A stretch of 64,000 bases of DNA. It comes from Bilabrum cf. latius. Lineage: Eukaryota. A model generated the notes under the pieces. That model was not told the origin of the DNA. It did not search any database and saw only the letters and a program-made list of their open reading frames with translations. Positions within the stretch are counted from its first letter, which is position 1, and each line of letters starts with the position of its first letter. This document shows positions 1-64,000 of this stretch, piece by piece. The stretch is from positions 496,001 to 560,000 of the forward strand of contig OZ237754.1 of NCBI GenBank assembly GCA_965178125.1, read 5' to 3'. Made by a program: the position numbers and the translations under genes.

Positions 1-2
1 AC

Positions 3-3000
3 AAGGTCAAGGGCAAGGCCAGCATGGTAGTCAACAGTACCAAGCAGCAGTCTACGATGAGAACCTCAGCTGAAACGGTTTGGGAACCGGAGGCGTCAAT
101 GACTGCACCCGTCATGTAGCGCAAGAAGCGCCCGGATGCTGTTCCGGCCTTAAGATCAGCAAACCCTCCCTCTACGGGGATAGGCATGTCATCAAGAATT
201 GCGAATCGCAAACGCGACGAAGAGCGCGGCGCTGGAACGTTGCCCACATTGCAGGGAATGCAAGAACCGAAGTTGAAGCCCAGGCATGCAGAGCAGTAGA
301 GAGCCACTCCAGCGAATGGAGGCTTGGGCTAGGCCTTCGACTCTAGCAGCAGCCGTCACGAGAGGAAGGCGGACCCGTCATCCAACCGCCGCAGGAACAC
401 TAAGCCTGATCGGCGTGGTACTCACGGCGGTGGTGGAAATCGTCGCAAGAACCGCGGAAGTTCCAACGGGCACGGTCGAAGTCGTGGCAGGGGCGGAGGG
501 CGGGGCCGTGGGTACGGGTCGAGAGCGAAATCAAGAAGACACGAGAGGCACTAGAGGCACGCGCTCTTTGACGAAGTGACTCGGAGTGCAGCGGCGAGCA
601 GCAGCTCGAGTCACATCGATGCTCCGCTTAAGTCTCCGCGTGCAGGGCGTAAGCACCAGCAGCAGGAGCAGCCGAAACACCATCGCGAGACAAAGGCCCA
701 GAGAGCCGATGTACTTGCGAGCGACGACTTATCAAGCCACCCGGACCACCAGCCAAGGGCGTCCACGTCACAAAGAGACAAAACGAGTTTCGACGGACAA
801 GTAAAGCAGTACAGTGCTATGTCAAAGCAGGATCGCGATGTTAGAAGTCCAGGTCGCACGTCGATGGGTTCTGCTAGGAGCTCTTAGGATGGGCAGCAGC
901 ATAAGGAGCGTCTTGGGTAGCAACCAATGTCAGCGCAACTCGCTGCCACATCCTTTCGGTTGGATGTGGCAACGCATGCGAGCCAGCGTAAGCCCGAGGC
1001 TCGGGCGCGGTCTCCAAGTGACAGCGATTTTGGAGTTGGATCGAACGAGGATGAGTTGCTTGGGCGCTAGTCCTCCCGGGCCGGGACCCTGATTCCTAGG
1101 CCGTCTGCGTCGGACCCCCCTTCCAATGCAAGAGCACGCGGAGCTTCAGAAGGCTTGCAGGGAAGCAATCGCCCGCGACCCTCAGCCTCCCAACCCTCCG
1201 TTTCGAACTCTCTCATGAATCTCAGTCAGAAGCCCGCATCGAGTATCGCGGCTGGCAAGCGCAGTAGCAGCATTGGTGGCGCCAGCAAGAGTTCTGGGCA
1301 GGTCCCGATGGGAGATGATGACGATGTTGATGCTCCTACAGCGACCATGCCCTCCACTAGGGTGAAGCAAGGCGCTGCTGGCGCGGAACGAGTTGCCTTG
1401 GGGAGCGTTCCAATGGACGGTGGACCAGTATCTGGGTCGGATGATGTGTATTCCTCGCCTGCTCGAAGACCTCAACGTGCCCGCAGACCAGCCTCGCAAG
1501 CGATTGCAGTGGAAGGTTCTAGTGAATCTGACGAGGACTTGCCAGATGTGGTCACATCTCCTTCTCGTGCTGCCAAGGGCAGGGCGGCAAGCCCGTCCCC
1601 ACCCAAGCTAGCTCACGGCAAGGGCAAGCGCAGCAATCAGAGTGCGAAAGCTGGCAAGGCCTCCCCTGGCAAGAGGAAGAAGAGAAACAGACCTACTGCC
1701 CGCGTCAATCCCTTGAAAGCAGAGCCTGTCGGCTGTCAGCACCCAGGTAAGCCCGCGCTGAAGAACCGCATGATGAAACGCACCTTCTACAAGGTCGACA
1801 GTGTCAGGCGCTTCATTCGCACCGCGGAGCACAGGCATCACGTGAATCTCACAGCTCTTGGAACAGATGCATGGGAGCAGAAGCAGTCGTTTGATCCTAC
1901 TGAAGCTATGGCCCAAGCCCACGCCGAGAAGATTGAGCCTGAACCTGAAAGCGAGGAGGATGACGCAGTGCCCGAGGCGCTTGACATCGTGAAAACGTTT
2001 GGGGCCATGACTGGATACGTCGACCCGCGAAGACTGCCAGGCGCATACGAGCGACGTACCCTCCCACTGGTGCTCGTGGATCGCATGATGCTGCCCGCAG
2101 AAGACCCCATGCATGTTTCTGTGGACGACGTTCTTTCTACGCTCGGGTCGGAGTTCAATCCATTTTCGCGGCAGTTTGTGTTTCTCCCGTTCCAGGATCA
2201 ATCGCATTTCTCCATGGCAATCATATGCAACGCCGCCATGGCGCTGCCATCGAAAAAGGAGGTGCAGAATGTCATCCGAAGGATCCGCAAACTTAAAGAC
2301 AAGCAGGGCGGCTCACAGGCCGTCAGTGCTTAGCAGACGTATGATATTTCTTCAAGCAGCGAGAGCAGCGGCGAGGTTGAGCCAATTGAGTCCCAGGCCC
2401 ACAGCAAGAAATAGAAGCGAACCGTAGATTCGGCCGGTGCATGGAGCCCTGATTAGGCTGGTCCTCTTCGACTGCAGAATCAGCTTCAAGCTGCACGGCA
2501 GCGGGCCCGAAGCTTGTGGGACGAGGTGCAGCCGCGCCTGGCGACCCGACTGCGGGAGGCTAACCCTGGAACAGCTGCTGCTGAGTTTATGAATCCATTC
2601 GAGTCTGCAAGCAAGGTACTGGGGCATCTGGTGCAGGAATTTAGTGCAAGCTACCTAATGGAAGTGAGCAGGAAGCGAATTCGTCCCTCGCATCTTCCTG
2701 AAGAGATGTCACGTGCCGTTGACTGTCTGATAGATTGCGCCGATGCATTCAAGTTTGATGACGACACCACAGAAAAATTGGTGAGGGGGATGAAGAATTT
2801 GGACGAATGTTGCGCACTGTTCACTGGGCCGCAAACATCCAAGTCACCCGACTCTAATGAGCCAAAGAAGTCGGCTGGTGAGGCTGGTGCTGAGAGCAGC
2901 CATGCCGCGGGAGGCAGTGCCAGCAGCAGCGCTAGCAGCAGTGCTAGAAGCAGTGCTAGCAAGCAGGTACGTTCAAAGCTTGTTCCGGAATCGATCGTAT

Positions 3001-5885
3001 TCGTCCACGGTGCTACTACTGAGGAACTTGAGGTCAGTCTCGTTCGCGCTTTGTCCCGTGAGGCGCTTGTGAAACTTTCTGCAAAGGCTCCTAGTGCACT
3101 CAAAGCCGCGGGCAGGCAGGCCGAGGGCGTTGTTGCAGCAGTGGAGTTGATTCTCAGTGGCGACACTGGAGATTCAGCAGCTGGGAGTGCAGGCATGCTG
3201 AGAGTGATGCACTCCTTCCTCGAGAAGACAGCAGACTACAGGCAGTCGATCCAGGTGGTGCATCAAATCCTGCTAGAGTATGCCAAGCGCTGCGACGTGC
3301 ATGCGCCCATCCCGAGGCACCCTCTTGAGTGCATCCGGTACGGCGTGTCGCCAGAGTTGGCTGGTTAGGCGAGCGGAGCCAACTCAATGGCCTCATCGGC
3401 AGCTTCTTCGAGCGCTGGACCAGCCGCTACAGGCCATGGTATTGAAATCTTAGGTCAACAACATTCGATAACTACAGACACTGCCGTGCTCAAGGCGTCT
3501 CTGCGGGAGGTTAGCAAGAGGCACGCTCATTGGCGCCTGAAGGGGCTCGCGGCTGCCGTGCAGGCACAGCACTAGCAGCATTTGACGAGAGCCAAAGCTG
3601 CTGGACGAGCTGCTTCCATGTTGTTTGCAATCCATGAGTACTCCAACGCAATGGCGACCTCCGGTGAGGACTTAAGCGGGCGGCTATCGTTTGCCAAATT
3701 GACTATAGATGAGCTGCTCTAGACTGCAGAGGAATCGTCCGAGAAGCTCAGACGGTGCATCATTGGCATGCATCGTCTGCTTCATGCCCAAAGACGACCA
3801 TAGGCTGAGTCCAGCTACAAGCTCATGTCGACTGCAGCTGAGGCCACAGAACCCGATGTAGTTACCCACTGGTCGCACGGTGCCGAACCGCCTCAGCAAT
3901 CAGGCGGGTCTCGGTCTAGGAGTCAAAGCCGTAGCCGTAGTCGGGGCGCTGGGGCTTCGCGCAATGATCTCGGCGTGGACTTCGACGGAGCAATTGGGTC
4001 CAAGCGTGCGAGAGCAGACCGCGCAGATCAAGATAGCCAACCGGAATCTATAGATGGCTCCGATGACGAAGCCAGCGTCTAGTCTGCGACCGAGCAGCAG
4101 CCTCGAGGGGGGCAGCAAGGACGGGGGGTCAGCAAGCGCCGGCGCAAGGAAGAACGCTCTGCATCCTCCTTGGCAAAGGAAAGTTCCACCAGTGTCGCGA
4201 GCTCGCAACCCGCACGTGGGTGTCACTCGGAACAGGAGATAACCTCTGCGATGTACAAGACGTCGTTCCGGCTCGTTGAAGCTTTGGCAAAGTTCGATCG
4301 CTTTGTGCTCTTCTTGCGCGAGCTGACAGGCAAGCTTGACGTTGCCTCCAATGTCAACCACGGGCTATACAAATGCTTGAAGCACGTGGCTGGTGTTACA
4401 CAAAAGAACGCAAAGACGTGTTTGAACCGGGAAAAGCGGAGCTACGACTTAGCCTCAAAGGTGATCCAGGGATCGCTGAGTAAGGAGTGCGTTGGTGGCT
4501 CTCCAGATGCTCCGGACGGTGCCGCCAGCACAGGTCGGAGGCAACGGAGGAGGCGCAGCAAATCCCGAGGACCATCAAGCGCAGCACCGTCTTCGTCTGG
4601 AGGCACGGCATCGTCAGCGTCAGAATCTGCTGCAGCAGCAAGCGGAACGAAGAGCACAGCAGATCCCGCCGCGATCGATGACGAGCGCCTGGCCCAGCTG
4701 ATAGCCAACAGCTCCTAGCTGCGGTACGAGTCAGACAGGGCGGTTGAGCCTCCGGCTCCGTGTATCATCTTGCTCGATTCCATCAAAGGTCACCACGACT
4801 ACAGAAAGTACGCCGTGTAGATTCGCAAGTACTGCTAGCTCATGTACGAACACACCTATGCCCCTGCAGAGTACACGCAGTACGCCGAGGAGGCACGAAA
4901 GCAGGGCCTCCCAGCCACTCATGACCTGGCGCCAAAGATGTTTTTGCAAGATCAGACCAGGTTCCATCACGTGCGTCTGCCCAATGCTCCCCAGCAACCC
5001 AACTCCTGCGACTGCGGCGTGTTCACTGTGTAGTTCTGCAGGCAGTGGATTCTGCGTGCGCTCGGCCCGCATATCACGGCTCGCGTGATTCAGGACAAGT
5101 TCAAGCATTCGATGTTCCTAGGAGCTGACATGTTCGATATCAGCACCATCCCGCAGCTGCGGCAGCAGCTGGCTAGGACCGCCACTGAGCTCGCCATGGA
5201 TAAAATGGAACGGGTGGACAAGGTGGAGGCTCGCAGGGTTGCCATCCTGGCAGAGATGAAGCGCGAGAAGGGTACAGGAGCAAGCTCCGAGGACGGAGGG
5301 ACTGGATCGAGTGGCCATGCCTCAGACCAAGAAGAAGGCGGGGCAAGCAGTAGCACCGATGTTGATGCCGACGACGACGATGGGGACAGTAGCAGCCCGG
5401 ACTCGGAGTCTGACAATGCTTCTGATGGAGGCCTAGGCATTGAAGACAATGAGTCAGGGAGTGATCCAGAAAACGTGAGTCGCAACGCACAGCTGGAATC
5501 CAACTCAGATGGCGCTAGCCGCGTACCATCCAGGCAGGCTCTAGGGCTGTCCTCAAGCCAGAGAGGTCCGAGCCGTGACATGCAGAGTCCAAGGCAAACT
5601 GATCGTGTTGGGGAGGCGCGGCGGGTTAATGAATCGAAGAATGATGGCCTATTGGACTGCGACGACGAGGAGGAAGACGATGAGGGGAACGGCGATGTCA
5701 ATGATGAAAACGACCTTGCCGAGACGGCGACTGAGGGGGCGAAGAGCATACATTCTCGAATGTTCACACAAATGACTGCGAAGGCGGGTGCAAGTGACGC
5801 CTCTGGTGACGTGGTACGGTAGCCCAGAGGTCAGGATGGAGTGAAAGACGGAGCTTGGAGGCTCGGATAGGGCGGTGAGGCGTAA
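3..5885 (+). CDS. Ulp2/SENP6-7-like SUMO protease (peptidase C48); 5' end at or beyond the window edge, ~1960 codons, TAG=Gln
   Basis: ORF-track fragments starting at 576, 1155, 2514, 3387, 3825, 4170, 4842 and 5085 share one frame and are separated only by TAG (~21 in total). The first TAA/TGA is TAA at 5883-5885. C48 motifs: FVFLPFQDQSHFSMAIICN (His), PCIILLDS (Asp), PQQPNSCDCGVF (Gln/Cys). Confidence 0.85.
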
Positions 5886-6025: not shown

Positions 6026-9000
6026 TTAATCCATAAGATCGCTAGAGGCAAAATCGCCTCCCTCGGTCGGCGGCACGCTTGGGTCATCTGTCAGGTCGAC
6101 CGCACTTGCACTGCCTCTGATGGCGCCCTCTATGAGATCATCATCTCCATCATCTGTTGCGTCCACAACCGCAGAGCTAGCTTGCGCTGAAACTGTGAGA
6201 GTGTTATACACGTCCACGAAGACGTCCATCACGCTGCCGCTGCGAAATTGCCTCGATCTGCTGTTTCCCGTGCTGCCAGCACTGCTTGCTTGGCTGCTGT
6301 TTCCAATACCGCGAGCGAGTCCTGCAGGCACCGACCCCACCACTGGTACGACAGGGCTCCCCGGACCAATACTAGTGGAGGGTCCGCCGCGAAAGCTAAA
6401 CTAGTTGCTGCCGCGCTGCCCGACAGCGGGGTCGCCACCTAGACCCTTGCCTCCGGCATCAGGCACAGCACCACTTCCCTCCACTGGAGCAGAGACGATC
6501 CTACCGAGGTGCATGCGATCCAGCTGCCCGACACCGTGGCCTTCAGCCCCATCAACTTCTGCCGCACCGGCAGCCTCCTCAACGGTACCCTGCCGTGCAT
6601 TACTGCCCCCATCGATCGCACCTGCTGGCACGACCTGCTGCACGGATCGAAACTGTGCGTCTCCGCTGAGAGCGCCTCCAGCAGTGGCCGTCCTGCGCCT
6701 GCTAAAAGACACGCGCCTAGCTCCACGCCTCCCATGCCGCAGCTCAGCGAGCCGACGACGCCGACGTAGCGCGTCCAGAGTATCGACGTGCCTGCCCATG
6801 TCTACTCCGCCAAAAAACGAGCCTATTCCTGGCACCATGCCAACCATGCTGCCAGTTCCGTACTCTCGTCCAAATCGCTGGCTCCACCCAGCTCGCAGGA
6901 GGCTGCCGCGCCGTGGTTCCGTCTGCTGGCCTGGGCCACCCCGATGGCTGGACCCGGCGACTGCAGTCGCCCTTCGCTCATAGTGCTCGGGTTCTAACCC
7001 AGGAGCAGAGGCGCCGATCCGTGCGTTCTGCATGGATGAAGATTGCTCGATGTGACCAACAGTGTGGCCCCGGTCGCGCCTGTCAAGCCTCTCGCTAGCA
7101 ACGCGAGAGTGTATGGGAGCCTTGTTGCCAGCCTATTCACTCCCATCGGCGCCATCCTATTCGTTCGCCTAGGCTAGATCACCAGCACCGGTGCTGCTTC
7201 GAGCTGACAAGCGACCAGTCCAAGTTCCACCGCCTTGCTCCTCATCACCACGGTCAGCTCCGTACAGTCCACTGCGGGCGTGCTGCTGCAGAGAGGCGCT
7301 CGGATGGATCGAGCTCATCTCGATGTCAGACGTCAGTTTCCGCATCCCACTCGCATCACCATCTTCAGCATTGCCCACCCCTGTGGGAGTTGCGACCGGA
7401 GACGGCGAAAATACCACGGCAGAGGCGTTCTGCCACTCCTGCACGCGGTGCCCGCTGCCTTGCTTCTGCTTGCAAGTCGGCGACAGCCCCCGCGCTGGAT
7501 TCCGTACCACCGTCGGGCTGGACGCTTCCTCATCGGCATCCTTCGATTCCCCCCCTTGCTTGCTTCCAGAGCCACGAAGGCTATCGACCCCGTGTCCAGC
7601 ACCCTGCTGCTACTCGTGCAGCTTCTCGAGCTCTTTCAGCTTCGCTTCGTGAGCCTGCTGGGCCTGTTTCTGCCTGCCGCTTAGGATGTACACACCGCAC
7701 AGCACCAGCGCAATACCGATCGGAAAGCACGCCCACGACACGGTGCTGAAAGAATCGAACTCTCGGTAGTACACCCCGCCCGCGATGATGGACGCAAACA
7801 TGAACGTGCTCGAAAATACAGGCACGATCAGCAGCGTGTCAAAAAGCTAAAGCCCTTTCGCCAAGAAGTGCTGCTGCAGCATCATGCATACGACCAGCGC
7901 CACAATCTGGACGTATGTGAGCAGGAAACGAAACTGGTTGTCTCCCGCGAACGTGACTTTCAGCAGCTCCGACACAGCCTTTGCGAACAGCACCGACTGC
8001 CCGCCCACCGTGCCACTCATGACACCGTAGAACACCGGGTGCATCCTAGAGTAGTACATGTATTCCTCCGGGGGAGATTCGAGCGCCTCTGCAACGATAT
8101 CAGTGGCGCTGGCGTGCCGCATCCTGTCGAGCTGTTCTGCAGCGGAGCTGGCCCCTGAGGCGCGGCCTGTAGAAGACCTGGACGACCTGGAGCCCTTCGT
8201 GAGCTGGCTCCAGTTGCGTCTCATGCCTGGCGGTGGGACAACAGATTCGGAATCGGAACTTGACATACTACCGTGGACATCGGCTCTATCAGCTGCGTCG
8301 GTTCTCTTGCCGTCGCTTGGCACGCCGTGCGCGTTGAATTCTGAACCATCCGTGCTGCTGCTGCCGGATTCGGAACCATGATCAGAATCATCTCCCCGCC
8401 CCTTGTTCCCGGGCTGCGGTCTCGGCGGCTTCAGCGCACTGCTTGCAACATGATCAATATTGTTTCGCTGGTCTGGTTCCCTCGTCGTGATCTGCTGCTG
8501 CATTTGCACTCGTCGCCTGCGACTGTCCTAAAGGCCTGCTTTCGACGGTGCGCCGTCAGTCCCTGCCGAGCCCGGTCTCGATCTCGAGACCGGCTCGCTA
8601 GCTGGCGGGACTGCAACCCTAATACCATCAGAGCTACTGCCGCCCGTCTTTGAGACCTTCGCAGATCTGCTCAAAGCCTTCACGATGCTGCTAGCGGGGT
8701 CTTCCCCGCCACTTCCGGGACGTCGCGCGGAAATGTCCCCGCTGCCTGCCGCAGCATCCCTGCTGCTCCCCTGCTCAATCCCATCCATCCTGGCGTCTAT
8801 ATCCGTTTCTTGCTGCAGCACAGCCGCCTGTGCCGCGCTCGCGTGCTCCTCCAGTGCCTCGATCATGGCCCTGGCCAGGATCGCCTCTGCACGACTGATG
8901 AACAGGTAGAGACCGCCCAGCATGGACAGCACGAGCGAGGCGTAAATAATCATTTCCAGTCGGGCCCACAGCTCGATAAGCTCTTGGATTGTGTATGAGG

Positions 9001-9819
9001 TCTCCTCGTGGCTGCCGAAGACGACTGCGATCACCGCGCCCGCAATCACGAGTGCAGTGCCAGCGTAGTCCTGCCACTGCAAGCTCTGACCCAGAAACAT
9101 GGTGGCAAATATAACATTTGCCACGAGTGTAGTTGATCCTACTGGAGCCACCAGGGTCTGCGGAGCCAGCCCGAAGGAGACAAAGTCACCTATCGCGCCC
9201 AAGATAACCAACGAGAGACCAACCCACCACTTGGGCTATTGTGTGTAAGGAAGCCGGGCATCGATAGCCTGCGCTTGGAGCATGATCTCAAGTTAATATG
9301 CACGAGCATGTGCGCATCTGGTGCGACAAATGTCATGCCTTTGGAAGATATTGCTCGTCCCGCATTGCCGCACGAGATTGCGGGGAAGCCCTCGGTGGCC
9401 CTGTGAAGCAGATCACGGGGCACTTTCCCAGCATGAGCGAAGGTAATTATTCCATGAATATGCTATGGTTAGCCATACTTTGCAAATATGCTGTCTCAAA
9501 GCTGAAAATCGTGCAGCAAGCCACCGGTGTACAGCCGCCAACTTCAATGCCCAAAACCGTAGTATTCAAAAAATCAACGTCCTCACTTTCTGGGCTTCTA
9601 GAAGGAATGAATACTTCTATGTGTTCACACCGAAGTTAGCAACGGAAGAGCTCAGCGCACGTACTCCAACACCCTGCGAAGAGCAAAATTCATGGGTGAC
9701 GAAGCAGTGGCGATCAATCACAATTCAGCAACCATCATGATTGGCTCAAGCGGCAAAGCAGGTAAAGACCGCGCAAGAAACTATTGTAAAGAACGCACAG
9801 CGAACGGCTACCATGACAT
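6026..9819 (-). CDS. NIPA: NIPA-family magnesium transporter with a long internal loop and C-terminal tail; probable exons 9819-9799, 9673-9587, 9268-6026
   Basis: Motifs NFGVNT[TAG]KYS, PKWWVGLSLVILGAIGDFVSFGLAPQTLVAPVGSTTLVAN, LAKGL[TAG]LFDTLLIVPVF and IIAGGVYYREF. Introns 9798-9674 (GTGCGT..CAG) and 9586-9269 (GTGAGG..CAG), both phase 0. Ends in TAA at 6028-6026. The first exon is tentative. Confidence 0.85.
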
Positions 9820-13672: not shown

Positions 13673-16600
13673 TCACTCCCGCTCCACAGGCACAGCAGAG
13701 GCAGACCGTCTCCAGTCCTTCTTCTTCGGGCCGCTGCTCGCCTGCCCTAAGCGTGCCCGGCTCCTGCTCAGCCTACTCCGTGACCTGGAGTGACGGTCCC
13801 TGACGTGATGCGACCTGCTCGCACGCGCGGCAGCATCCGCAGCGTCTCGAAGCATGCCCTCGAGAACCAGCATCCGGACGTGCCTACAGGCTGAAGGGGC
13901 TCCCCAACCCAGCTGCAGGTGCGGGACCGCCTCGGGCAGACCTGATGACCCTGCACCTCCGTGCGATGCACCTGCGCTCGCCCAAGCTCGGGCTACTTTC
14001 ACGATGCCGTCACCGCGGTGTGGGGCGCCGACCGCGGCCTCCCGGATCAGCTTGAGCTGCCTCTTCTCTTCTGCCAGCGCGGCGCTCCGGTGAGACTGCA
14101 GCTCCCTGGCAGCGCGTGCTGCAGGGGAGGCCAGGCCCGCTCCCGAGCCAGCATCGATGCCTTGGTAGGCCAGCCTCATGGAGTGCAGCACCGGCAACAC
14201 GTAGGTGCTAGACTTTGGCCCCTCTCCTCCCCAGTCCCCGCTAGCCTGACCGTCTTGCTTGCCGCCGCTCGGCCCATGCACTGACGCCACCATCCCTGCG
14301 TCCCAGGCCGGCAACTCCTACGAGCCTAGAATGGACAAGCTTGCACCCAGCTTGCCGCGGATCGTACCCTCAAGCGCAACGCCGGAGGACGTGACGAGAT
14401 GCTGCTCAGGAGGACCCTGCGACCTCCGCAAAACCAGCGCTCGAGTGCTCCAGAAATCGTGCTGCGACGGGTCTTCTTTCGCTGCCTCACTGACATCTGC
14501 CGCGGCGGACGGGCCGCCAGCAAGCAGCGCGCCGGCCGCGCATCTTGGTGGTCCACCCAGCTCTGCAAACAGGTCGAGCACAGCGAGGGCACCGTCGTCC
14601 TGGCACACAAACACCACCGGCTTGCGCAACAGCTCCGGTCTGCACTGCTCCAGCGTTCGCCAGGCCGCAAGGAGGTGCGCGAGCCGGTTGGCCTGGGCGT
14701 CGCCCGCCGCCCGCCGCTTGTCTCTGTCTGCCTTTGCTGGACTGGGGCGCCACGTGTCTGGCTTGGAAGCAGGCTCTTTCTTCGGGTCGCCATTTGGTGC
14801 CTTACTGTCATCTTTCTCACTCGGAGACTGACCTGCTGCTTGACCCCCCTGGGGTGTATCGAGCCCAAGGCTGTCGCACGCCTCCATTGGCACAGCCTAA
14901 ATCTCGGCAAAAGGTTTTGCTCTTGGCTTGACCTCGCCGTCGTTTTGGCCGTTGCGAGCCGGGGCTTCTTCAGCTATGCTGCCTTTGCCGTTGTCTTCCC
15001 CGTTCACGCCCATTTCTCCGTCCTGCTCCCCCCAGTCAATTCCTTCCATCATCTCACCCCAGGAAGGAATGGCCTCCCCGTCCCCTCCTGCCGTTCCGTC
15101 TTCGCCCTTGCGTTCCTCGGTGGCCTTCGCAGCATCTGTGTCTGCCTGCTCTTCGCTGGTGTTTTTCTCAGCACCGGTCCCATCCTCGGCTCCGTCACCA
15201 AGACCCACGGTGAACTGGAAATCGACCGCGTTGATCCCATAATCCGCAGGGTTGGGACCGTCATCATCACCGCCGTCTGGGTTGCCGGCATCCGCGCCAA
15301 CGGTTCCCAACTACGTTAGAAAGTCGCCATCCATGTCCACCTGAGCACCTTCACCCCAATCCAGACCTCCTCCCCAGTCATCAGCCTCAGTGTCACCAGC
15401 CCCAGTGTCACCAGCCCCAGTGGCCTCGGCATCCTCTGGAGCCAGCGGATCTGCAGCAGCTCCGTCCGCTCCCGAGTCGTGTGTCCCCGCTTCATCGGGT
15501 GCTTGCAGCCCCTCCAAGAGTCCAGAAGCCAGCGCAGAGCCGGCACCGCCCGACGATTCTACCGTGGCATCGCCCGCTTCCATATCCTCTCCGCCTGTCT
15601 ACTACTACCCATCGCCTGGAATGTCCATGGCGTTGCTAAGCGCGTCGTTCAGGTTGAGAGCGACGCCATCTGACGCGTCCCGCAAAGTGTCGCCGATAGG
15701 CCCGCCACCAACAGCGCGCACGCGCCCCGTCGCACCCTCCACCAGCTCCATGCCGTCGAGGGGGTCGAGAAGGGCAGAAGCGGGTGGCTTCGGACTTTGG
15801 GAAGCAGCGCCACCGTTGGAGCCATCTTTGGCCTGGCCCACTTGCCCCGCCCGACTGCGTCCCTGCGCGCGCACCCGAACCGTGGGCACATCGGCGAGGT
15901 GCAGCAGTCCCCCAGGAATCCGCTTCCCGTCCTGGGACCAACTTGAGGCGTTGGATGCGCTGCTCTGGGGGCGACCCCAGTCGTCGAGAGCGTCGGCAGC
16001 CGCTCCAATCGAGCTGCCCGCCTTACTCTGTAGCGGGTCCTACTCGTGCCCCCGCCTGCCCGCACCACCGCTCGCACTGCCATCACCGCCCCACTCGCCT
16101 TCAGGACTCTCCCTGTCAGCAGGAGCGGTTTCACCCGCCGGGGTGCGGCCCTGCCACAGCCCAGACCCATTCGCGTACTCGAACACCTCTCCGTCGTGAA
16201 TGCCAGCTGCGCCTCGCGAAGCAGCGCCGCCGCCCTAGCCCCTCTCTGGGGACCGAACCACGGCTCCGGCGGTGAGGCCTTCCCATTCCGCTGCCTGCCC
16301 ACCTGCCAGCGCGCTCAAGACACTGTCATTACGACCGGCAGAGTCAGAGTCAGCGTTGCTAGAACCAGCGCTGCTGCTGTCCCCGCCGCGCCACAGTCCG
16401 AGCCCTCCAGGCACCCTCACGCCAATGCACGAGGCCGCGGCCACCTCTTGCTCTAGCCCAGCCCGGGTCGCATCTGCGTTTGGATTGGTCAGTACGATCG
16501 CCACCTTGAGCAGCGAATCCTTTTGTCTCCTGCCATCCAACGCCGGGATCCGCACCCTGGTGAGCTCCTTCAGGAGCGGCAGCACAGAACCGGCAGCCGT

Positions 16601-18763: not shown

Positions 18764-18858
18764 GGTAACGATTATTTGAGAGAATTTAGGCTGCGCCGCT
18801 GCGGTTGACCTTTGAAACCGGAACCACCAATTTCGAAAATCCGAAATCGGGCCCACCC

Positions 18859-19572
18859 GCGCGTTACTTTGGTGGCAGTCCTCGGATTGTCTCTGGTATT
18901 GAATTGCGTGCGAAAACTCTATTTTCTCTCTCTCTCTCCCGCTCGGACACATACTGAATCCCTCCGAGAACTAGTTCATCGGAGAGTGGATGACAGGAAC
19001 GCTGGGCCGTTGCGCCCTCAGCAAGGAGCTTCAGGTGCTAGAACGCATCTGGGCGAAGGGAACGGCAAGGCTAGCACGCTCCCGGATCTGGAGCAGGCAA
19101 CAAGTCCTAGAGGCGGACTATGTGGCGGTCTGGTGGCGAGAGGCTGAACGCCTCACGCCTCGCCAGGCCTTCCTCGCGCATGCTCCCTCACTGCGGACGT
19201 TCGACTGGGTCTGACTCCCAGGAGATCTCAACGCGATGCGCTTAGGACACGGGTCCTAGGCATGTATCGGTCTTAACCAGACCAACTATTTCTTCAGAGG
19301 CCTTTTCAGGTCCTGACTGGCTCCGCCAACGCGGGTACAGCTGGGTCCCCTGTTAAGGTGCGCGTTACTTTGGTGGCAGTCCTCGGATTGTCTCTGGTAT
19401 TGAATTGCGTGCGAAAACTCTATTTTCTCTCTCTCTCTCTCGGGCATTCTAGTCGTCGCGGGTACAGCTGGGTCCCCTGTTAAGGTGCGCGTTACTTTGG
19501 TGGCAGTCCTCGGATTGTCTCTGGTATTGAATTGCGTGCGAAAACTCTATTTTCTCTCTCTCTCTCTCTCTC
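18859..19572 (+). mobile_element. Three head-to-tail, 5'-truncated copies of a retroelement 3' end with (TC)n tails (non-LTR or Penelope-like)
   Basis: The identical core gcgcgttactttggtggcag...gaaaactctatttt followed by (TC)7, (TC)8 or (TC)10 ends at 18938, 19441 and 19572. Copies 2 and 3 share ~30 bp more on the 5' side. Copy 2 is preceded by an ORF remnant ending in TGA at 19214. Confidence 0.6.
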
Positions 19573-40850: not shown

Positions 40851-40908
40851 TTCAGATTCGATATCTCGTAGCTGCAAGATGCAATTATTTGCAATGTTAT
40901 CCGATTAA

Positions 40909-43707: not shown

Positions 43708-44040
43708 AGGCAGCTCTCGTTGGCCTTGGGCTTCGGCGCCGCGCAATCGAGTGTGGCGTGACGGAACTTTGTCGCGCACCGAAGGATCCCGTCTCTACAT
43801 AGCTCACTACCGATAGCATTTCCTAGTAAGATCTCTTCATGATATATTTGCAGCGTGCCATTGCATCTAGGCAAGGAGCGTTGGTCGTCTTCGGCCTTGT
43901 ATCGTACGCATACAGAGCCACCCTGTTTGAATTGGCTGGCTGCCGGATTCGTCCTGCCTGCATGCCTGCCACATTCAGTCTATCAATGTTTCCTCCCACA
44001 ATATTTTGCAGGACTATTCAAACGAACTTATTTTGCGCCT

Positions 44041-49283: not shown

Positions 49284-49497
49284 CTTGCTTGAACAAACCT
49301 GATTCATCCGAGCACCGTAAATCTGCCATGCATGCTACAGTAACATCAACCTCTGTTGTGTGCGTATCGCCAGCTCTGTGTGGTTGTTTGTGTTGTTCTT
49401 CTTGAAGAATGTCGCTCTGCCCGTTGGTCTTCCGCACTGCACTGCCGTGGCCGCGATCAAGCCCAAAATTGGCTTTCCCCTGCTAGCGTACGATTCA

Positions 49498-52400
49498 ATG
49501 TTTAGTGGCTGCTCCCGCGCGCAGCAGCTTGAATATGAATGTATCTCATCCTCTCTTCACCCTTCTGGCCTATTTTGGGCAGCCTTGGGCAGAGAGCGCG
49601 TCAGCATCCGAACGATGCAGCCAGATCAGAAGATTGGGGGCATCAAGCTTGCACCTGGTTCGTTCTCCCTACCAAGTGGCGGTGAAGTGTTTTGGTCTGG
49701 CTCTGGACGGTGTTTAGCGTGCTTCCGAGGAGCAGGCCTGGAGCTGTTCGAGATAAGCCCGCTACCCGCCTCCTTCGCGAAAACGAGGCCAAGGCTTCAG
49801 GCGCCCAACTGGCTCAGTCCACCCGGTCTTCCCGCAGAATCTGAAGGATGCAGTTCAGTTCGTGATGACTCGTTTGACTGGAGTGCATTTGCTGATGCTT
49901 TCGGGGATCGCGAGGGATGCCTGGGCATACCAGCTGTCACTTTGCACGCAGTTTGGTCCCTGCGATCAGCAGAGTCCCAGCATGCCCTTCGTAGCATCCC
50001 ACAGATGAATGATTTGTTTAAAGGCACGCTAGACTGTTCGATAGTGGCCGTTGCCGCGTGCCCTATGGATGACGCACAAGCTGGCATGGTAGCGTCGACG
50101 GCTCGCCCACCTCACCCCAGCCTTGGCGTAGCAGTCCTTGTGTGCGAATCAGACTCACCCGGGGGCAACTAGATTCCAGCCGCTGTTGTGCTTGTAGGTT
50201 GGGGAGGCGACGTCAGCCTGATCTAGGTGACGAGGCTGCCCGCTTGCCTGCGACCCCAGCGAACGGAGGTCGAGCACTCAGGACTTTCGGACCTGCATCT
50301 GGCCTCAGCTAGAGAGTAGGAGCACTCCAGCCGAGTTGATATGGCGTGGGCTCCATCGCTGGGTGGATTTCTACTTCGCGTTCCTGGAGCTGGTGTGCTG
50401 CTGCTTGGTACCACCACCCTTGGGGAATCCAGCCGCACTGACAGAGAGCGGCAGCCGCATCCAATGACACTGCCAAGCGAGCGAAGCTTGCCACAGTCGG
50501 GTGGAGATAACGACGAAGAAACATATGCGGACGACGGAGAAGAAGATAGTGATGATGTCTCGCTTCCGCCTGATGGAGCAGGCGAGTCGCCTCAAAATTT
50601 CGGCGAGATTCCACCGAGCTTGGAGGCATCGGCAGGCGCGAACACTGAACATGCTCTTTCGCCTCAGAGCTTTTGCGATATTGTTGCGCGCATATCACGC
50701 GCCAGAGTTGTCCTATCAGAAGGCCATGTCTCGGCAATGCATGCGCCATAGCTGCATTCAGCGTCACTCTGCATGAAATGGCACGGCACCGGCAACCAGC
50801 TGCTGGTATCGCATGCGGATGGGTCTGTGACGGTGTGGAGCGTAGTTCTCGGCGATGTGCCTGCTAGCAATGAACCAGCACCACGCACCCCTGTGACAGT
50901 CCCTGTATTGAGGATCAGCCTGCAAGACGACGGCCATGCGCCGGAGGTGGTCGGGCCTGTCACCCTAATGCGTTGGTTGGGCACGGGTGGCTCGACAGCC
51001 AGGGCGGGAGGGACTGGAGCCACGCTTGCGGGTGGCCTGGCCGTTGGGTGGGCATGCGGAGCCACGAGAGTATATGGCAGCTCCGGTACAGTGCTGCTGC
51101 AAGAGGGCTTCTCACGAATCCAGGACGCGGAAATGCAAGAAGTGTTCGAGTTCAGTCGAAAGGCGAAGCGTGGGGCGGTAATGGGACGAGGAGCAGGAGC
51201 AGGAGCAGGAGCAAAGCCGGGTACTAGCGAGTCGAAGGAATCTCCGAGTCAACAAGACGTAGCGCCAGGGCTGTACGGCACCGTGCCCCCAGGCCCGGCA
51301 CCTGTCTCGGCACTGCTGTCATATCAGCCTTGGAACGGGGCTGGCAATGCTGAAGTGGCTGGGTCAGGCGGTATCTCATAGGTAGTGCAGAACTACGAGT
51401 CTGCGGGATCCAGGCAGGTTCTTCATGCGGCAGCTGGGAGGCTCGAGCTAACAATAGTATATGCTATGTGGCCGCAAATTGCGGGTTCAACACCTCCGCC
51501 CGATGACTCGATGGAGGGGCCAAAGGCTACTGCCAGTGCAGACGACCCTTAGACTAAAAGCGATTCAGGATAGGCTAGAATACATCGAGAGATTCCGTGC
51601 TTTACAAGACGGCATGGACTGATGCTACCCGCTGCAGGGATGTCGGCTGCTCTGCCCGGCGCGTTTGCGCACGCAACCAGAAGATGGGCGGTTGAGGCGA
51701 GTTGTCCGGTCGATACTGCTACACGCGGGTACGTATGTGGATCTGCCTGGAAACAGGCCAGGAAGCAGTCTGCCGAGTTTGACGCTCTCGTTGGGCGTGG
51801 ACTGTCCGGATCGATGCAGCTGCCAGCACTACTTCTCCCCGGCGGTGCTTGGCTGCCGCACGCGCGCGTTGGGGGCGGGGTCATCGGGGAGGCGAACGCC
51901 GCTCTCGGTTCTCACTAGTATTCATCCAGCGGCTCGACGGCGGATGCCGACTCTAGCATCCGATTTTGGATGCAGCGACAGGCGCACGACCCGCTCTACC
52001 TCTCTATGTGGGGGCATGTGCACTCTGTGGTGCCGGGCTAGGGAGGCGTTGGCACTTCCACAGACTCAGGCGTGCGAGAAGCAAGGCAGCATGGGTCCCC
52101 AGAGAGCCAGACATAGCCCGACTGGATGTGCGTCGGCAGGAGGGGGCTGGTAGCCAGCAGCACTCGAGACTCTGCAGCTGCGAAAAGCACCGCGTCGATT
52201 GGCTCTGCATCTGAAGCGGGAGCCATGCCTGACGAGGGCATGCCACGCGTTCACGCAGCGGTGGTGCTCAGCAACGGAACGCGTGTGGCCGCTTCGTCAA
52301 GAAGTAGGGATCGGGGCGAGCCGGGCCTGGGTCCCTTGCACGCGGCCGAGGCATGGCAGGACGCAGGGCTCAAGTTCGAGAGGCCGCCTTCTGCAGTCGT

Positions 52401-55400
52401 GACCAGGGGCGCATCATGGCAGGCAGTTGTGCAGCCATGGGGCAGTGCCGCAGTTGCAGGCGCTCTCGGCAGCCCGGGAGTCACGCTAAGGGAGGTCCGG
52501 TTGCTCTTCGGCGAAGACACAAAGCACGCCCTCTGGCACGGCGACGACAGGCTACGAACGGACGAGTCCGTTGCTGGAATATTGGATGGTATCCCGTTGT
52601 CTAGGCGCATGGCAGTCGACCAGGCGAAGGCAAGTGACGTGACCACTAGTCCGGATGCTGGTTTTGCTGGCCTGCGAATGGAAGCTTGGTCAGAGCTGCA
52701 CCCGCTCGTGAGGGCCATGTGTGACGCTCTGCAGAATCCAGCCACTGGCACTGCCACTGACATGACCACTGCAAGCCCTAGCACACCTGCGGCAGTTGGC
52801 AGGGCTGGTGCGGGTGCAGGTGTGTCGCAACGCGATTCCCGCTCGCTGCCAACGTCCTCGCACTAGTACCTGCAGGTGCTACCAAGCAGCGTCAAGGTGC
52901 CAGCATCAATACTCGTCGCAACGGGAGGCAAGCAAGAAGCTCCCATTCGGGGACTACGGACTACGAACATCCTGCCGATCCCGTCTGTAGCAGGCAGCCA
53001 GCGGCCGCCTGCCAAGTAGGAGCTCGGTCGGCTGATCGTGTGTGGCGTGCCTGCAGATGACCACGCGGCCGCGTGGTTTCACTCGCGACTGGAGACGGTG
53101 CACCATTCAAGCGCATTGGATCCATCTGATGGCAGTCGAGGCATATCAGGCGGTCTCGGTACCGGCCCTGCGGCCGCGCGGTGTGGCGCAGTCATGATGC
53201 TGTACAAGATACTTGCCGTCAATGGCGCGCCCAGCGATCCAGAGTCTAGCGATGGCGTGCCGAGGCTGGTTCGTGCCGTGATGCTTCCGCGAGAATTTGG
53301 CACCCCAGTCGATACTGTTGTGCTGCAGTCTGAATCAGTGGAGAAGGAGGCGCCGCGCCCTGCCACCTTCGGCCCGTTAACGCCCACCCCGGTCCGGACA
53401 GCCGGCGCAGGTGGTAGTGCAAGATCTGCTGCATCCTCGTCTGCTGGCTCTATCGTGGAGCATTGGCCGGTCATCGGCGTCAGATCTTAGTCAGGCGCAG
53501 TGGCGGTGGTCCGCTTCTCACGACGCTCGTTTGAGACAGTGTTTCACAGGGGCATCACGGGACTCTGGTCAGCCGACGTATCTGCTTGGACGGAAAGACC
53601 AGCGGCTACGCAGACAAGCGGATCGGATGCCCCACAAAGGAGCAAAGAGCATAGCACCGATAATGCTCGGGATGGTCGGGGTTGCGCATTTGCAGTCATG
53701 CTGCGAGGCCCAGGCCTGTCATGTGCCCAGGCGTAGCAGCCATCGCACGCGCAGCAATCGATTGCTTAGCCCAGCACGCAGAGGCTGCCAAACCCAGCTG
53801 ACCACCAGCAGTGCGCAGTGGCTGTAATTGCTGCTGGTGACGATTGCGCAGTTGCCTTACGGAGCGCATTGCCCGACGCGGGGCTGTCCTCGTGGCTTGG
53901 CTCAGAGTCGGTGCCGTGCGGCATGCACGCCGCATCGCTATCACTGCTGTCCCTCTCGAATGAATCGGAAGGCGGGGCCGACGAGAGGCGCATCCTCACT
54001 CGTCACACGAGAGGAGAGCTCATGCGCACGTCTTCGAATTCCCCCGACCTCGCAAGCTGCCCCCTGCTCCCCTCTCTCGCTCGGCAGGCTGTACTCACGG
54101 GACGGACAGGGCTGGCAGCACGGCTGCTCTCCACGGGGGCCCCTTGCATCGACCAGAGTCCTACGACGATGGCAACTAGGCGGAGATGCGCTGTTGCGCT
54201 TGGTGCCAGGGAAGCGCCGGCAGTCGTGCTGGATGGCGTACTGCAGGCTGCGAGCAGCAGGCTGAAGCAGGCATGGGACAGGCTGGAGCCAGCGGCGAGA
54301 ATTTCCCTCCAAGACATCGTGTGGGGGGAGCAAGGCCAGGTGATGGTGCCGATTGCATGGGAACGAACGTCTGGAGGTGGCACAAGTGGCACCGAGGGGG
54401 GTTCTGCTGGTGGGATCAAGACAGCTGTGCACATGGGCGTGGACGAGTTCCTGCACGGCAGCAGTGGCGATGGGCCTCTTTCTAGTGAAGGCGATGGACG
54501 AGCCGTGCATGAGACGACGAAAAAGTCTCCCGAAGGATCGCTGCGCGACGGTTCCGTGGCATGGGCGCAGGGTGCAAAGCAGATCCTAGATGGGGTTCTG
54601 GGTCTGTTGCAGCGCCGCAGCGACTACGTTGGCACGGTGGCCATGGTGGCGCGCGGCTCTGATTCGGCCACACTGCCGATCCTATTCCCGTTGGCAGGAC
54701 ACCCGGTGCAGCTGATCATGCGGGCCATTCGAGAAGGCAACCTGAGATCTGCAGCAATGCTGCTGTCGGTGGTGGAATCGTATGTATTCACGAGGCTGCA
54801 GCAGGGGCTGGATGCTGGGCAGGGCATAGGCGTACACGGCATGCCTCCTGGAACTCCTGGGACACGAGGCGCCGGAGCGAGCCGAGATAGGGGCCAAGTC
54901 ACAGCTGGTGGCATCTCTCCTGATCTCACGGCTGCTGCGGGGAGCGATCAGTTGAGGCGAGGCACTGGCTTGCTGGCCAGGGCAGAGGCTGGCCGCAAGC
55001 GAGCTGCTTCTGGGGCTCTCGCTTCGAAGTTAGGCGCGCAATCAGGGTCTTCTCTACCTTAGGACACCGATTCTAGCGGATCGAGCGGCGGCCTTCTATC
55101 CTACGTTGGTCTGGGTTGGCTGGCAGAAGGCTGGGTGGAGGCGGAGGAGAGCCATCGGGAGCAAGTGCACGGAGATGCGACTCCTAGCCCCGGCTCTGCA
55201 TCGGGCTCGCACTCCGCGAGCACAGATGAGTGGCGCGCGGTGCAGATGCGTCGCACGCGGCCTGTCAAATAGGGCACCGGCAGGGAGGCGGCAGAGTTGA
55301 CTGCGAGACACAGGCTGGCTGCAGTCAGTGCTGCGCTGACATGCCAATCAATGCTCGTGCGTGCCTGCCTCGCTAGGCGATCAGAGCTGCTGCAGCAGGC

Positions 55401-55695
55401 AGGCAAGATCCGCGAATCCATGAAAGTGCCTCGATCAGAATCCCATGAAGGCAATAAGCGCGAGGGTGGCGGCGTTAGCTCTGCCGATTCCGGCAGAGGA
55501 GACTCGCAAGCAACCGACGCTCTCGCAGACAGGGCACTCGTCGCACAAGCCATCCGCATGGGTGACTACGACGCAGCCGACAAGATCGCCAGGGCGAGGA
55601 AGCTACAGAAGGAGGCCACGGAGGTTGATAACCTGCGACTTGAAATGGAAGCGTACGGCATGCGACTGCGGGAGGCGTGCGGTCCGACCGCATGA
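49498..55695 (+). CDS. RIC1: RIC1-like (Rab6 GEF complex partner), ~2065 aa
   Basis: Nine fragments in one frame joined only by TAG (all gaps checked). The C-terminal block DYVGTVAMVARGSDSATLPILFPLAGHPVQLIMRAIREGNLRSAAMLL resembles the RIC1 domain, and the N-terminus is beta-propeller-like. TGA at 55693-55695. Confidence 0.65.
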
Positions 55696-59360: not shown

Positions 59361-60764
59361 ATGATTCGGCGCCATGCCGCTACGCTAATCAGCAGCTTTG
59401 ATGAATCGGATTAGGATGTATCAAATTCAAGCGAGGACACTTCCAAGAGGCGATAGCGTAAGACTGCTTCGTCAAAGGACAGAGTCTGATTCGCACCAGA
59501 GCCAACATCAGTGTACAGTTATTTTTCTAGCTATCTCGCAGCCGAGTACTCCGTCCTGTCCTTTATTTTAATTGCAATTGTCGTACTAGCGGTACTTGTT
59601 GCTGGAACAAGATCTGTATTCGAGCACTTTGAGCTGTCGACTGGCTCCAGACTTGCGAGCGAGCACTTGCACTACAGCCCGAACGACCCGAGCCGAAGGG
59701 CAATCCCATTATTGATTCCCGTCTACGATCGTCCGGAAATGCTCTAGTAGGTGATCGATTCCGTGGAGTCTGCGCGGGGTAGCGCAGAGGTGCTCTACGT
59801 GTTCAGCCAGGACGGCAACAATTAGCAGGTGTCTGATACGATTGACAGCATCTAGCACAGGCCTGGTTCCCGCGTGATTCATCTGCGTCACATGTAGCCG
59901 CTCGCTCACATTCTGCCGATGTTTCGCGACGGAGATGCGGCCACGACGTCCCAGGTGTACTTCTTGCTCAGGTTCGCGTTCTCGTACCTGCAAGCTCGGG
60001 CGGCTATCGTCCTCGAATCTGATGTCGTTCTGGCCCCTGACGCCCTGTCATATTTCCAAGGGGTATTCGAATCTATTGATGGGAACGCTAGCACGCGTAG
60101 CAGGGTGATGGTGGTCAACGGAGCCAACGATCCTCACTTCGACGAGGCCTGGCCGGCAGCCTCCAAGGCAGGCGGGAGGTACGGAGACAGTCTCAGGGTG
60201 TACCCCGCGGGCTCAACTCAGTCAACGCACACTCTCGACGGCACATCAGAGCGGGACGGCCCGGAACTCACGCGGGGGGTTGCGGCTGCCGCCCGACCAA
60301 GACACGAGGTATTGGCTGGCGGTGGCGGCCGTCCTGATCCCGATCCCAACGGTGATGGGTTGCTGGCATTCGGCGATCCGAGGGGATTTCGTGGCGGTGG
60401 GTGGCTGTGCCCCGCCTGGTCATGGGACCTGCTGGAGAGCCGGTTCGCGGGTGTGATGGGGTGGCAATCCGTGGTGGAGCGGGTCAGGAGGACGGAGGGG
60501 CTGCTGGCGCTGTCGCCAATTCGCAGCAAGACTGCGCACCTGCCTGACGCTGAGAAGGCTGAGCATTGGCCATGGTGGGTTGGCCCGCTCACTGATCATT
60601 CTTTACGGGGAAATCGTGGCAGCGGCACAGCGGATGGGCATGGACATGGATTGCTGGATGTTGGGGTGCAGGAGAAGAGAGAGCAACCTAGTGGCGGAGG
60701 TCTTGGAGGTGCCGAAGTGATGTAGCCTTCGCGGGGATTCGGGTCTTCCGCTGCTGTGATTTGA
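59361..60764 (+). CDS. GnT-I/MGAT1-like (GT13/GT-A fold) type II membrane glycosyltransferase; probable intron 59458-59541
   Basis: N-terminal TM helix, then IPVYDRPEML[TAG][TAG]VIDSV, VFSQDG, IVLESDVVLAPDALSYF, VNGAND and FRGGGW. Reads through TAG at 60723 to TGA at 60762-60764. The first exon is tentative. Confidence 0.7.
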
Positions 60765-62133: not shown

Positions 62134-62422
62134 CCTGCTCGGTGCGACTGGCTCGCTCAGGAGAGCAGACCCGCACAGCAACGCGGCGCAGCACGCCTCA
62201 ATGGAACGGGGCGAGGGTAACTCCGTGGAATGTGAATTGCTAGTCACATTTATCAGTCAATTATCTGCCACGTGCTACAGGTCTACGTAATGCGAATGCA
62301 CAGCCCTGATCCCTGGATTGAGTAGGCGAGGCAGATGCATCTGCATGCCCTGGCCCTGGCACATTGAGCTACACACGACTTATGATCCAGCTGGTTGGGC
62401 CTCTACCTGCATTGTTTTTTGA

Positions 62423-64000
62423 TCATGCCATCTTCATCGTGCTGAAGATGGTTGTACGGTCGATGCAGTTGTTGGTCCTCCTTCTCTTCCCGGCGACTAG
62501 ACTCTGTTCTTGCGGCACTTATCACCGCAATGCAGCAAAATTCTGGCGATTAGACCAAATATTTAGAGAAAATGCCCCATAGTTAGTTAGACCCTGCAGT
62601 TTTGTGGTCTCCATGACGATGTTTTCGCGATCGCCGATCCTAGTGAATCTCTTGCTGCTTGGTTCCCAATCCACGCAGCTGCAATGGCATCAGTTATCCT
62701 GTATCTTGGCCCATCAGACGGTATTGCTTTAGCATATTCATCCAAAGGTTTGTATTCCGGCCTTACTAGCCCAAAACTAGATGCTGTTTGGGTCCTCAGC
62801 ACCGCTGTGGCGATGCGAGAATTGCCAATGCTTGGCATCACAGTCCCTCAGCCGGCAAATCCGTTGAAGGATAAATCATTGGATGAATATGTTGGTGTGG
62901 CAGCTGGCATGCACTCATTATGCTGTGTGGATGCCTGCCTTGCTTTTCCATGCGTTTCGCTTGCTGCCGTTCCACAAGCTCCCCCAATGATCAATCAAGT
63001 TTCAGGCGTGGTAGGATACTCACTTGATAGACTTCACCATATCATGGATACACCTGTCAAGCTCCAAGACTCGAGCGAAACCATAGAGCCATCCAGTCTC
63101 CAGTCTGACCAATCCAGATACTATTCGTAGTACGATGTCACGCTGGCGGCAACCGGGATGATGGTGGCTGCTTAGTAGTTCTTTGAAGACGTCACTGAAA
63201 CAGACGACCCGCTGAAGGAGCTAGCTGCTGCATGCTTGCGGGAGCGTGCACGGGCAGGCAGCGCACAGGATGAGGACGAGGACGACATGCAGGCACAGCC
63301 AGCAGCCTCGGCAATACTCCGTCTCCCAGACGACGCCAGGTCCATAGTTTTCTCTAGCGATGAAGAGGCAAACGAGCGCGTGACAAGCGGGGTAGTTGCA
63401 TACTTGGATGGGTTCAAGCCAAACCTTCGCGACCGTGGCCAGACCGACCACTCAATGCTGGGCAGATACTCTGACAGCCTCGCCGACGCCGTCGGCAGCT
63501 CGCTTGCAACTCAAGACTTTGCCATGAGCATCAATTTAGAGGGCGACTCTGCAATTGGTCGCGCAAGGGTACCAGGTGGCAGGAATCGCGCGGGCCAGCC
63601 TGCAGGGGTCCCAGTTGCTAGAGAGGGGTCAACTCCAAGTAAGAACATGAAGAAACTGAACGTGCCCCACGTTACCAAGTCCACTACTGCAAGCGTGGGG
63701 CGCGTTCAGCGTCATAGCTCGCACTTCCCAGCTGGTACTAGCTTGACAGACATATGTCTTGTGGCCGATCAACCGCTCGAGGAGCACAGAAATGGCGCGA
63801 AGGTATCTCCTGCTGCATCCCGGAGTTCGCACTCGACCGCAAGTGCAGTCGAACTTGGCCGAGGTGCCGCCAGCACAGCAATAGAGGAGAGATGGCAGTA
63901 TCGGCGGGTTTCGTCTGCCATGCACACAATGCGATGGACGAGGATGGCCATTCGGATGCAAAGCGTCAAGAAGGTCTTATTGTTCCGTCTTGCGGAGTTT
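62423..64000 (+). CDS. Hypothetical protein, 3'-partial; start unresolved
   Basis: The frame of ORF 62684 is open from 62423 to the window end, with only TAG interruptions (e.g. 63128 and tandem 63173-63178). Confidence 0.5.

Follow-up and report, generated by a model that had tools for sequence, protein, structure and literature searches.

Nuclear DNA of a stramenopile in which the codon UAG appears to be read as glutamine

We analysed a stretch of 64,000 nucleotides (nt) from contig OZ237754.1 (positions 496,001 to 560,000 of the forward strand; assembly GCA_965178125.1, deposited as Bilabrum cf. latius) with respect to the meaning of the codon TAG, which is UAG in the messenger RNA (mRNA). 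The entire stretch is called the window in the following. The window very probably is part of the nuclear genome of a stramenopile outside the oomycetes and ochrophytes, in which UAG stands for glutamine (Gln, Q) while UAA and UGA serve as stop codons, a variant that corresponds to NCBI table 15. An initial annotation of the DNA had proposed such a recoding. The DNA examined comprises 64 kb of one genome, and all counts of open reading frames (ORFs) refer to this window.

TAG acts as an ordinary sense codon

With the standard code (table 11), the longest ORF between two stop codons has a length of 871 amino acids. When TAG was taken as a sense codon, nine ORFs with 3114, 2124, 1960, 1785, 1594, 1582, 1088, 932, and 822 codons emerged, which contain 35, 17, 21, 14, 1, 8, 8, 7, and 8 in-frame TAGs, respectively. 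They cover both strands and lie nearly end to end. ORFs with at least 500 amino acids add up to 3,442 amino acids for the standard code. This sum is 17,741 if TAG is sense, compared to 3,954 if TAA and 8,682 if TGA is taken as sense instead. Gene fragments were not joined by reading TAA or TGA as sense, and adding TAA as a sense codon left the large ORFs almost unchanged. The initial annotation had described fragments that are joined by reading through TAG into ORFs of up to about 3065 codons, and this description is accurate: the longest ORF has 3114 codons from stop to stop and 3074 codons from the first ATG. Likewise, an in-frame TAG was found at every site that had been named, i.e. at 46665-46667 on the plus strand and at 20762-20764, 20672-20674, and 9617-9619 on the minus strand.

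For a set of 20 ORFs with a total of 18,665 codons, 145 TAG, 589 CAG, and 205 CAA codons were counted, and TAG is present in 17 of these ORFs. Based on the rates found off frame in this DNA, 134 TAG, 53 TAA, and 268 TGA codons are expected. That in-frame TAA and TGA are completely missing, compared to 145 TAGs, is a consequence of the ORF definition; the part that goes beyond chance is the length of the ORFs. The in-frame frequency of TAG is close to the chance level (0.78% of codons versus 0.72% off frame). TAG thus makes up about 0.8% of all codons, and its share of the Gln codons is 15%. It is scarce in the best-conserved genes, namely those for the ISWI ATPase (1 of 65 Gln codons), ARPC3 (0 of 3), and a lipase-like hydrolase (0 of 11), and it is frequent in long proteins of low complexity, for example in the ORF with 3114 codons (35 of 200 Gln codons) and in the Ulp1 ORF (21 of 113). 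The GC content is 55-64% if determined in 4-kb windows, which corresponds to about 60%.

Furthermore, conserved protein domains are located 3' of in-frame TAGs. The domain Peptidase_C48 follows 18 of them, FH2 follows five, and SLIDE follows the TAG of the ISWI gene. Both domains of the ornithine carbamoyltransferase (OTC) contain or follow TAGs, which occupy residues 14 and 44. TAG is an ordinary sense codon in this DNA and must be read through.

TAA and TGA terminate genes

The 18 complete ORFs are all closed by TGA (16 cases) or TAA (two cases). If the ratio of CAA to CAG (205:589) is applied to the 145 TAGs, about 50 in-frame TAA codons are expected, compared to none observed. UAA and UGA still terminate translation. 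Code 6, in which both UAA and UAG (UAR) encode Gln, was considered and rejected, since TAA is not a sense codon.

TAG is not depleted near the ends of the ORFs. The last 10 codons contain one TAG in 180 codons (1.4 expected), the last 25 codons contain five in 450 (3.4 expected), and the last 50 codons contain six in 900 (6.9 expected); these counts are small, and the gene ends were taken from the ORFs. Due to this lack of depletion, there is no sign of an ambiguous code that depends on position.

Glutamine is the residue supported for TAG

TAG was translated as X in order to avoid a bias in the alignments. The most conserved site is located in motif VI of the SNF2-type ISWI ATPase (DRAHRIG-X-TKP), where the column aligned with the TAG contains Q in 120 of 120 homologs. 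The initial annotation had placed the TAG at 46665 at a Gln position of this motif, and the alignment agrees completely.

A search with the C-terminus of the Ulp1 ORF identified a close relative that is represented by two protein fragments, P0127 (75% identical) and P0126 (70%). P0126 contains Q opposite each of the TAGs at 4818, 4836, and 5031. A search with the RIC1-like ORF among shorter proteins yielded three fragments, which are 85-90% identical, and one of these, P0142, contains Q opposite the TAG at 51916. Taken together, close relatives with 70-90% identity possess Q at four of the four TAG sites that could be aligned, three in P0126 and one in P0142.

The OTC was compared with 80 prokaryotic loci. 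At site 44, these contain Q in 48, H in 31, and G in one case. The four closest loci, which are 56-62% identical, contain Q both at site 14 and at site 44. In four PDB chains, the residues are E, E, S, and Q at site 14 and H, H, Q, and Q at site 44. For the upstream exon piece of the NIPA gene, a local alignment with P0125 places Q opposite the TAG at 9617-9619, and its score was equalled by 5 of 500 shuffles. A second homolog, P0124, was matched by eye only. The assignment of this TAG to a Gln position, as made in the initial annotation, is therefore backed by one of two homologs in a formal alignment.

In order to combine the columns, a log-odds score was calculated by means of a simple scheme of our own, which is not that of Codetta and in which each column is capped at five effective sequences. 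For all 15 columns with any aligned residue, the scores were +14.8 for Q, -7.4 for E, and -7.5 for R. Without the invariant ISWI column, Q scored +11.7 and E scored -5.6. An earlier calculation with 10 columns, for which the columns of the GNT-like glycosyltransferase and of the NIPA exon were left out, had yielded +17.4 for Q. The composition of the neighbourhood of the TAGs was additionally evaluated: Q shows a 1.5-fold enrichment and fits best as the centre residue, with M and R close behind in this weak test. Every test that could be run supports glutamine as the residue for which UAG would stand. The proposal of the initial annotation is backed in particular by the invariant ISWI column, the close relatives, the nearest OTC homologs, and the score for the 15 columns.

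In-frame TAGs in public sequencing runs and in relatives

Contigs, not raw reads, of four public runs (X1, X5, X6, and X7) from three studies were compared with positions 36001-56000 of the window. This region contains 35 in-frame TAGs, all of which are covered by X1; the contigs listed for X5, X6, and X7 cover 34, 7, and 9 of them, respectively. No other letter was found at any of these sites. The single difference listed for the 20 kb is a C>T exchange at 45876, which is no TAG site.

One X5 contig of 1043 letters joins position 44516 to 44684 and skips 167 nt that begin with GT and end with AG. The junction is in frame and connects the exon coding for the HMG box with the exon coding for the ISWI ATPase. 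This intron-less contig retains the TAGs at 44077 and 44233. Moreover, X5 contigs do not reach across the intergenic spacers; one contig, for instance, spans 40874-43812 around the ORF at 40909-43707 and contains no deviating letter. The intron-less contig with its TAGs is good, if not final, evidence for UAG in the mature mRNA. Because this contig lacks the intron and keeps two TAGs, both an assembly error and editing are disfavoured. The TAGs are no artefact, and editing is probably not involved.

Positions 40901-50900 are identical letter for letter in the runs X1-X7, which stem from three studies and carry three coded organism labels. Further runs, X8-X13, contain small shares of the sequence, and none of the runs with this sequence is recorded as RNA. 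The organism from which the sequence of the window originates may be passed on as a cell in co-culture or in association with others.

Fragments of related proteins, which had been called with the standard code, end at positions that correspond to TAGs of the window. P0127 ends one residue before the TAG at 4716, P0142 one residue before that at 52039, and P0140 one residue before that at 52864; a fourth fragment, P0141, ends four residues before the TAG at 50170. Such a coincidence would be hard to explain unless the reading frames of the relatives are interrupted by TAG at these sites. Judged from these protein ends, at least one other organism with 70-90% protein identity would possess in-frame stop codons at the same places. 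No relative was detected in two scans of metagenomes of the Joint Genome Institute (JGI), one with the C-terminus of Ulp1 and one with a stretch of RIC1.

Placement among the stramenopiles

The best named matches of the ISWI ATPase are from oomycetes and ochrophytes. P0006, which is among the nearest ISWI proteins, is 49% identical over the full alignment. A comparison with a hydrolase that contains no TAG added nothing to the taxonomic placement. The architecture with an HMG box (PF00505) in front of the ISWI ATPase is shared with the matches from oomycetes and diatoms and is missing in the match from rice. A tree was calculated for this one gene on the basis of a quick search; its 32 rows consist of the window sequence and 31 of the 120 homologs, which were selected so as to represent the named groups and the best other matches. 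In this tree, the window sequence belongs to a clade of eight rows with a support of 99 in the Shimodaira-Hasegawa-like approximate likelihood ratio test (SH-aLRT). This clade is located inside a clade of 27 rows (SH-aLRT 98) together with the oomycetes (100) and the ochrophytes (99) and belongs to neither of the two. These data support the placement of the organism as a putative stramenopile outside oomycetes and ochrophytes; a finer name such as Cafeteria is not supported. The genome had initially been described as stramenopile-type, and the best named ISWI matches, the N-terminal HMG box, and the ISWI tree are in agreement with this.

An origin of the DNA from a phage or a giant virus was considered and rejected, given the eukaryotic housekeeping genes and the spliceosomal intron.

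Alternative explanations

Several observations weigh against the reading of UAG as glutamine or against single steps of the argument. Some alignment columns would fit better to a code in which TAG is sense and encodes a residue other than Gln, for instance Glu, Leu, Arg, or Ser. At site 14 of the OTC, the 80 prokaryotic loci contain E in 48, T in 9, A in 8, S in 7, Q in 6, and M and R in one case each. The initial annotation had assigned both OTC TAGs to Gln positions; this holds for the four closest loci, whereas the argument was overstated for site 14, which is mostly Glu. Among the Ulp1 homologs, the more distant proteins P0128 and P0129 (about 40% identical) show V, Q, and E at the TAGs at 4818, 4836, and 5031, i.e. 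a residue other than Q at two of three sites. In the NIPA transporter, for which the comparison comprises two homologous proteins only, probably since low-complexity words prevailed in the selection of candidates, the TAG at 7847-7849 is opposite R and Q and the TAG at 9236-9238 is opposite S. The TAG column of the HMG box contains N in 5, S in 3, G in 3, E in 2, and Q and R in one case each (Q in 1 of 15) and was regarded as uninformative; a second TAG column of the HMG box is without any aligned homolog. For the five TAG sites of the GNT-like glycosyltransferase, Q was found in none of five PDB chains, which are too distant (E-values of 4.7e-4 to 0.15) and were treated as uninformative. A different amino acid is nevertheless highly improbable, given Q in all homologs at SNF2 motif VI, at all four alignable sites of the close relatives, and at both OTC sites of the nearest loci. 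Over the 15 columns, the next-best residue is about 22 log units behind Q.

An ambiguous code, in which UAG stands for Gln inside of genes and also terminates some of them depending on the context, resembles the situation in Condylostoma, in karyorelict ciliates, and, for UAA, in Blastocrithidia. In two ORFs of the window, the last TAG is close to the stop codon, five codons before it in the case of Ulp1 and 13 codons before it in the case of GNT, and a true gene end at this TAG would look alike. Ambiguous codes have been described with a depletion of in-frame stop codons near gene ends, which is not seen in the ORF ends evaluated above, and all 18 complete ORFs continue to a TGA or TAA. Such a code is thus improbable, if less so than a different amino acid. 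The least probable explanation is that the TAGs are not translated as such, because they are assembly or sequencing errors, mark pseudogenes, or are changed to CAG by U-to-C editing of the mRNA. In its favour, the RNA status of the runs X5-X7 is a guess: X5 is labelled 'RNA? (probably DNA)', and that its contigs represent cDNA rests on one intron-less contig and on the gaps at the spacers. The pattern is, however, specific for TAG (145 TAGs and neither TAA nor TGA, with ORFs reaching 3114 codons), and contigs of four runs from three studies are identical in every letter at the TAG sites that they cover. Moreover, the intron-less contig retains two TAGs, and the protein calls of the relatives break at the same sites. 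With respect to the latter, the stop codon of the relatives is deduced from protein ends.

By analogy with other lineages that possess such codes, UAG would be decoded by a tRNA-Gln with the anticodon CUA or by a Gln tRNA that is able to read UAG, and eRF1 would have lost the recognition of UAG. Two further points to be counted among those that weigh against our interpretation are that neither a tRNA gene nor another RNA gene was detected in the 64 kb (ARAGORN 0, Rfam 0) and that no eRF1 gene is in view there.

Gene content of the window

The features of the window are listed in Table 1. According to Pfam, the gene products are those of a eukaryotic nuclear genome: a Ulp1-type protease, a NIPA Mg transporter, ARPC3, an RMND1/DUF155 protein, OTC, a monoglyceride-lipase-like hydrolase, an FH2 formin, an alpha/beta hydrolase, and an ISWI ATPase with an HMG box. 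Further products are Agenet, F-box, and EF-hand proteins, a GNT-I-like glycosyltransferase, and a weak match to RIC1, which with 23.8 bits is below the Pfam cut-off of 27 bits.

Table 1. Location and properties of genes and other features in the window. Positions are those of the window unless residues are indicated.
Feature	Position	Strand	Properties
Ulp1/SENP-like protease ORF	3..5885	+	1960 codons, 5' end open, 21 TAG, stop TAA
Peptidase_C48 domain of Ulp1 ORF	residues 1636-1684		E 3.8e-8, 3' of 18 TAG
Ulp1 TAGs comparable with close relative	4716, 4818, 4836, 5031 (4716..5033)	+	
NIPA-type Mg transporter ORF	6026..9292	-	1088 codons, 8 TAG, stop TAA; Mg_trans_NIPA E 8.7e-35
TAG in upstream NIPA exon piece	9617..9619	-	
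ORF without Pfam family	13673..19030	-	1785 codons, 14 TAG
OTC main exon	19928..20803	-	TAG at 20762-20764 and 20672-20674; Pfam OTCace_N and OTCace; PDB match E 7e-87
ORF with (GQ)n run	22809..25277	-	822 codons, 8 TAG
Low-complexity ORF without Pfam family	25439..34783	-	3114 codons, 35 TAG
Formin (FH2) ORF	36156..40904	-	1582 codons, 8 TAG; FH2 E 7.3e-31, residues 903-1316, 3' of 5 TAG
Alpha/beta hydrolase ORF	40909..43707	+	932 codons, 7 TAG
HMG-box first exon of ISWI gene	43843..44516	+	TAG at 44077 and 44233
Spliceosomal intron	44517..44683	+	167 nt, GT..AG
ISWI/SNF2 ATPase exon	44684..49283	+	One TAG at 46665-46667, motif VI DRAHRIG-TAG-TKP; SNF2-rel_dom E 7e-94, Helicase_C, SLIDE
RIC1-like ORF	49321..55695	+	2124 codons, 17 TAG including 51916, 52039, 52864
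GNT-I/MGAT2-like glycosyltransferase ORF	59490..60764	+	424 codons, 6 TAG
Two small paralogous ORFs	60804-61253, 61759-62133	+	149 and 124 codons, 0 TAG, both with stop TAA

The two small paralogous ORFs code for Cys-rich proteins with a hydrophobic stretch at the C-terminus and without a Pfam family. The formin ORF contains, at 38700-39800, a nearly identical sequence of about 40 residues in four copies, which match the Pfam family CCDC53 (a subunit of WASH; E 1e-43). These repeats are located between long (AP)n runs, and in all four sequencing runs the DNA coding for (AP)n has a contig depth that is thousands-fold and many false joints. The formin gene on the minus strand and the hydrolase gene on the plus strand are arranged head to head at 40850-40909, with first ATGs that are about 60 nt apart. 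Other neighbouring genes are separated by 30-140 nt; introns are few, and the genome is highly compact.

Among prokaryotes, the OTC loci closest to that of the window are contigs of archaeal metagenome-assembled genomes (L001-L004), two of which are labelled Heimdallarchaeota. Bacterial loci are well behind with 42-50% identity, compared to the 56-62% of the archaeal ones. The closeness of the archaeal sequences may reflect the ancestry of eukaryotic OTC or eukaryotic DNA that was binned into these metagenome-assembled genomes.

Relation to known genetic codes and implications

Among the cases listed in PMC11687900, nuclear codes in which UAG alone was reassigned to Gln are those of the fornicate Iotanema spirale, the ciliate Protocruzia tuzeti, and two lineages of phyllopharyngean ciliates. 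The code deduced here is the same with respect to UAG as Gln and to UAA and UGA as stops, whereas the organism would be a stramenopile and not a ciliate or metamonad, and its DNA is GC-rich (about 60%). Reassignment of both UAA and UAG to Gln (table 6) is listed there for many ciliates, Ulvophyceae, Hexamita, Streblomastix strix, and Amoeboaphelidium protococcarum. A stop codon of the UAR pair encodes Gln in these organisms as well; in the window, however, TAA is not sense and two of 18 ORFs end with it. For UAG alone, the same source names a reassignment to Leu for an uncultured rhizarian and for ciliates, to Ser for Scotinosphaera, and to Glu for an uncultured ciliate. These codes likewise separate UAG from UAA, as does that of the window, where UAG would be Gln. 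According to PMC11687900, such an uncoupling of UAG from UAA is limited to a handful of lineages.

Stop codons that are ambiguous between stop and sense are known from Condylostoma and karyorelict ciliates, as stated in 10.1101/2022.04.12.488043. In-gene stop codons are common to these organisms, Blastocrithidia, and the window; here, only one codon is affected and no dependence on position was seen. Finally, crAss-like and other phages use a 'genetic code 15' with TAG as Gln, as described in PMC9523058. Codon and amino acid are the same, whereas the window contains eukaryotic genes (ISWI, formin, ARPC3, RIC1) and a spliceosomal intron.

A code of the table 15 type is thus known, and the major lineage is new. 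No report of a nuclear stop reassignment in stramenopiles was found in the literature searched, a search outside of which subscription journals and supplements, which may list such a case, were located. The known cases in the accessible part of PMC11687900 do not include a stramenopile, and none was found in the available parts of PMC13524828, 10.64898/2026.08.26.747235, and PMC12153298. This literature, as far as it was accessible, and the list in PMC11687900 agree with the initial annotation, according to which no such report is known for this group. The sequencing runs date from 2025, and a description of the stramenopile code may exist or be coming.

It is likely that the window represents the first nuclear stop reassignment in stramenopiles and an independent origin of the rare code in which UAG alone was reassigned to Gln and UAA is kept as a stop, in a genome that is GC-rich, compact, and intron-poor. 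This likely reading includes that the code is a trait at the level of a clade, i.e. of an undescribed or poorly sampled heterotrophic lineage, which at least two related organisms share.

Gene callers that use the standard code shred the genes of this organism, and its relatives occur in protein collections in the form of pieces that probably end at TAG. Therefore, annotation, BUSCO scores, and phylogenomic matrices are wrong for this lineage until table 15 is used. Only about a dozen lineages of eukaryotes are known to have changed their nuclear code, and the case of a stramenopile would mean a further, independent origin within a major supergroup. AT pressure is the explanation that is usually offered for the capture of stop codons; the GC-rich genome of the organism bears on the question of how stop codons get captured.

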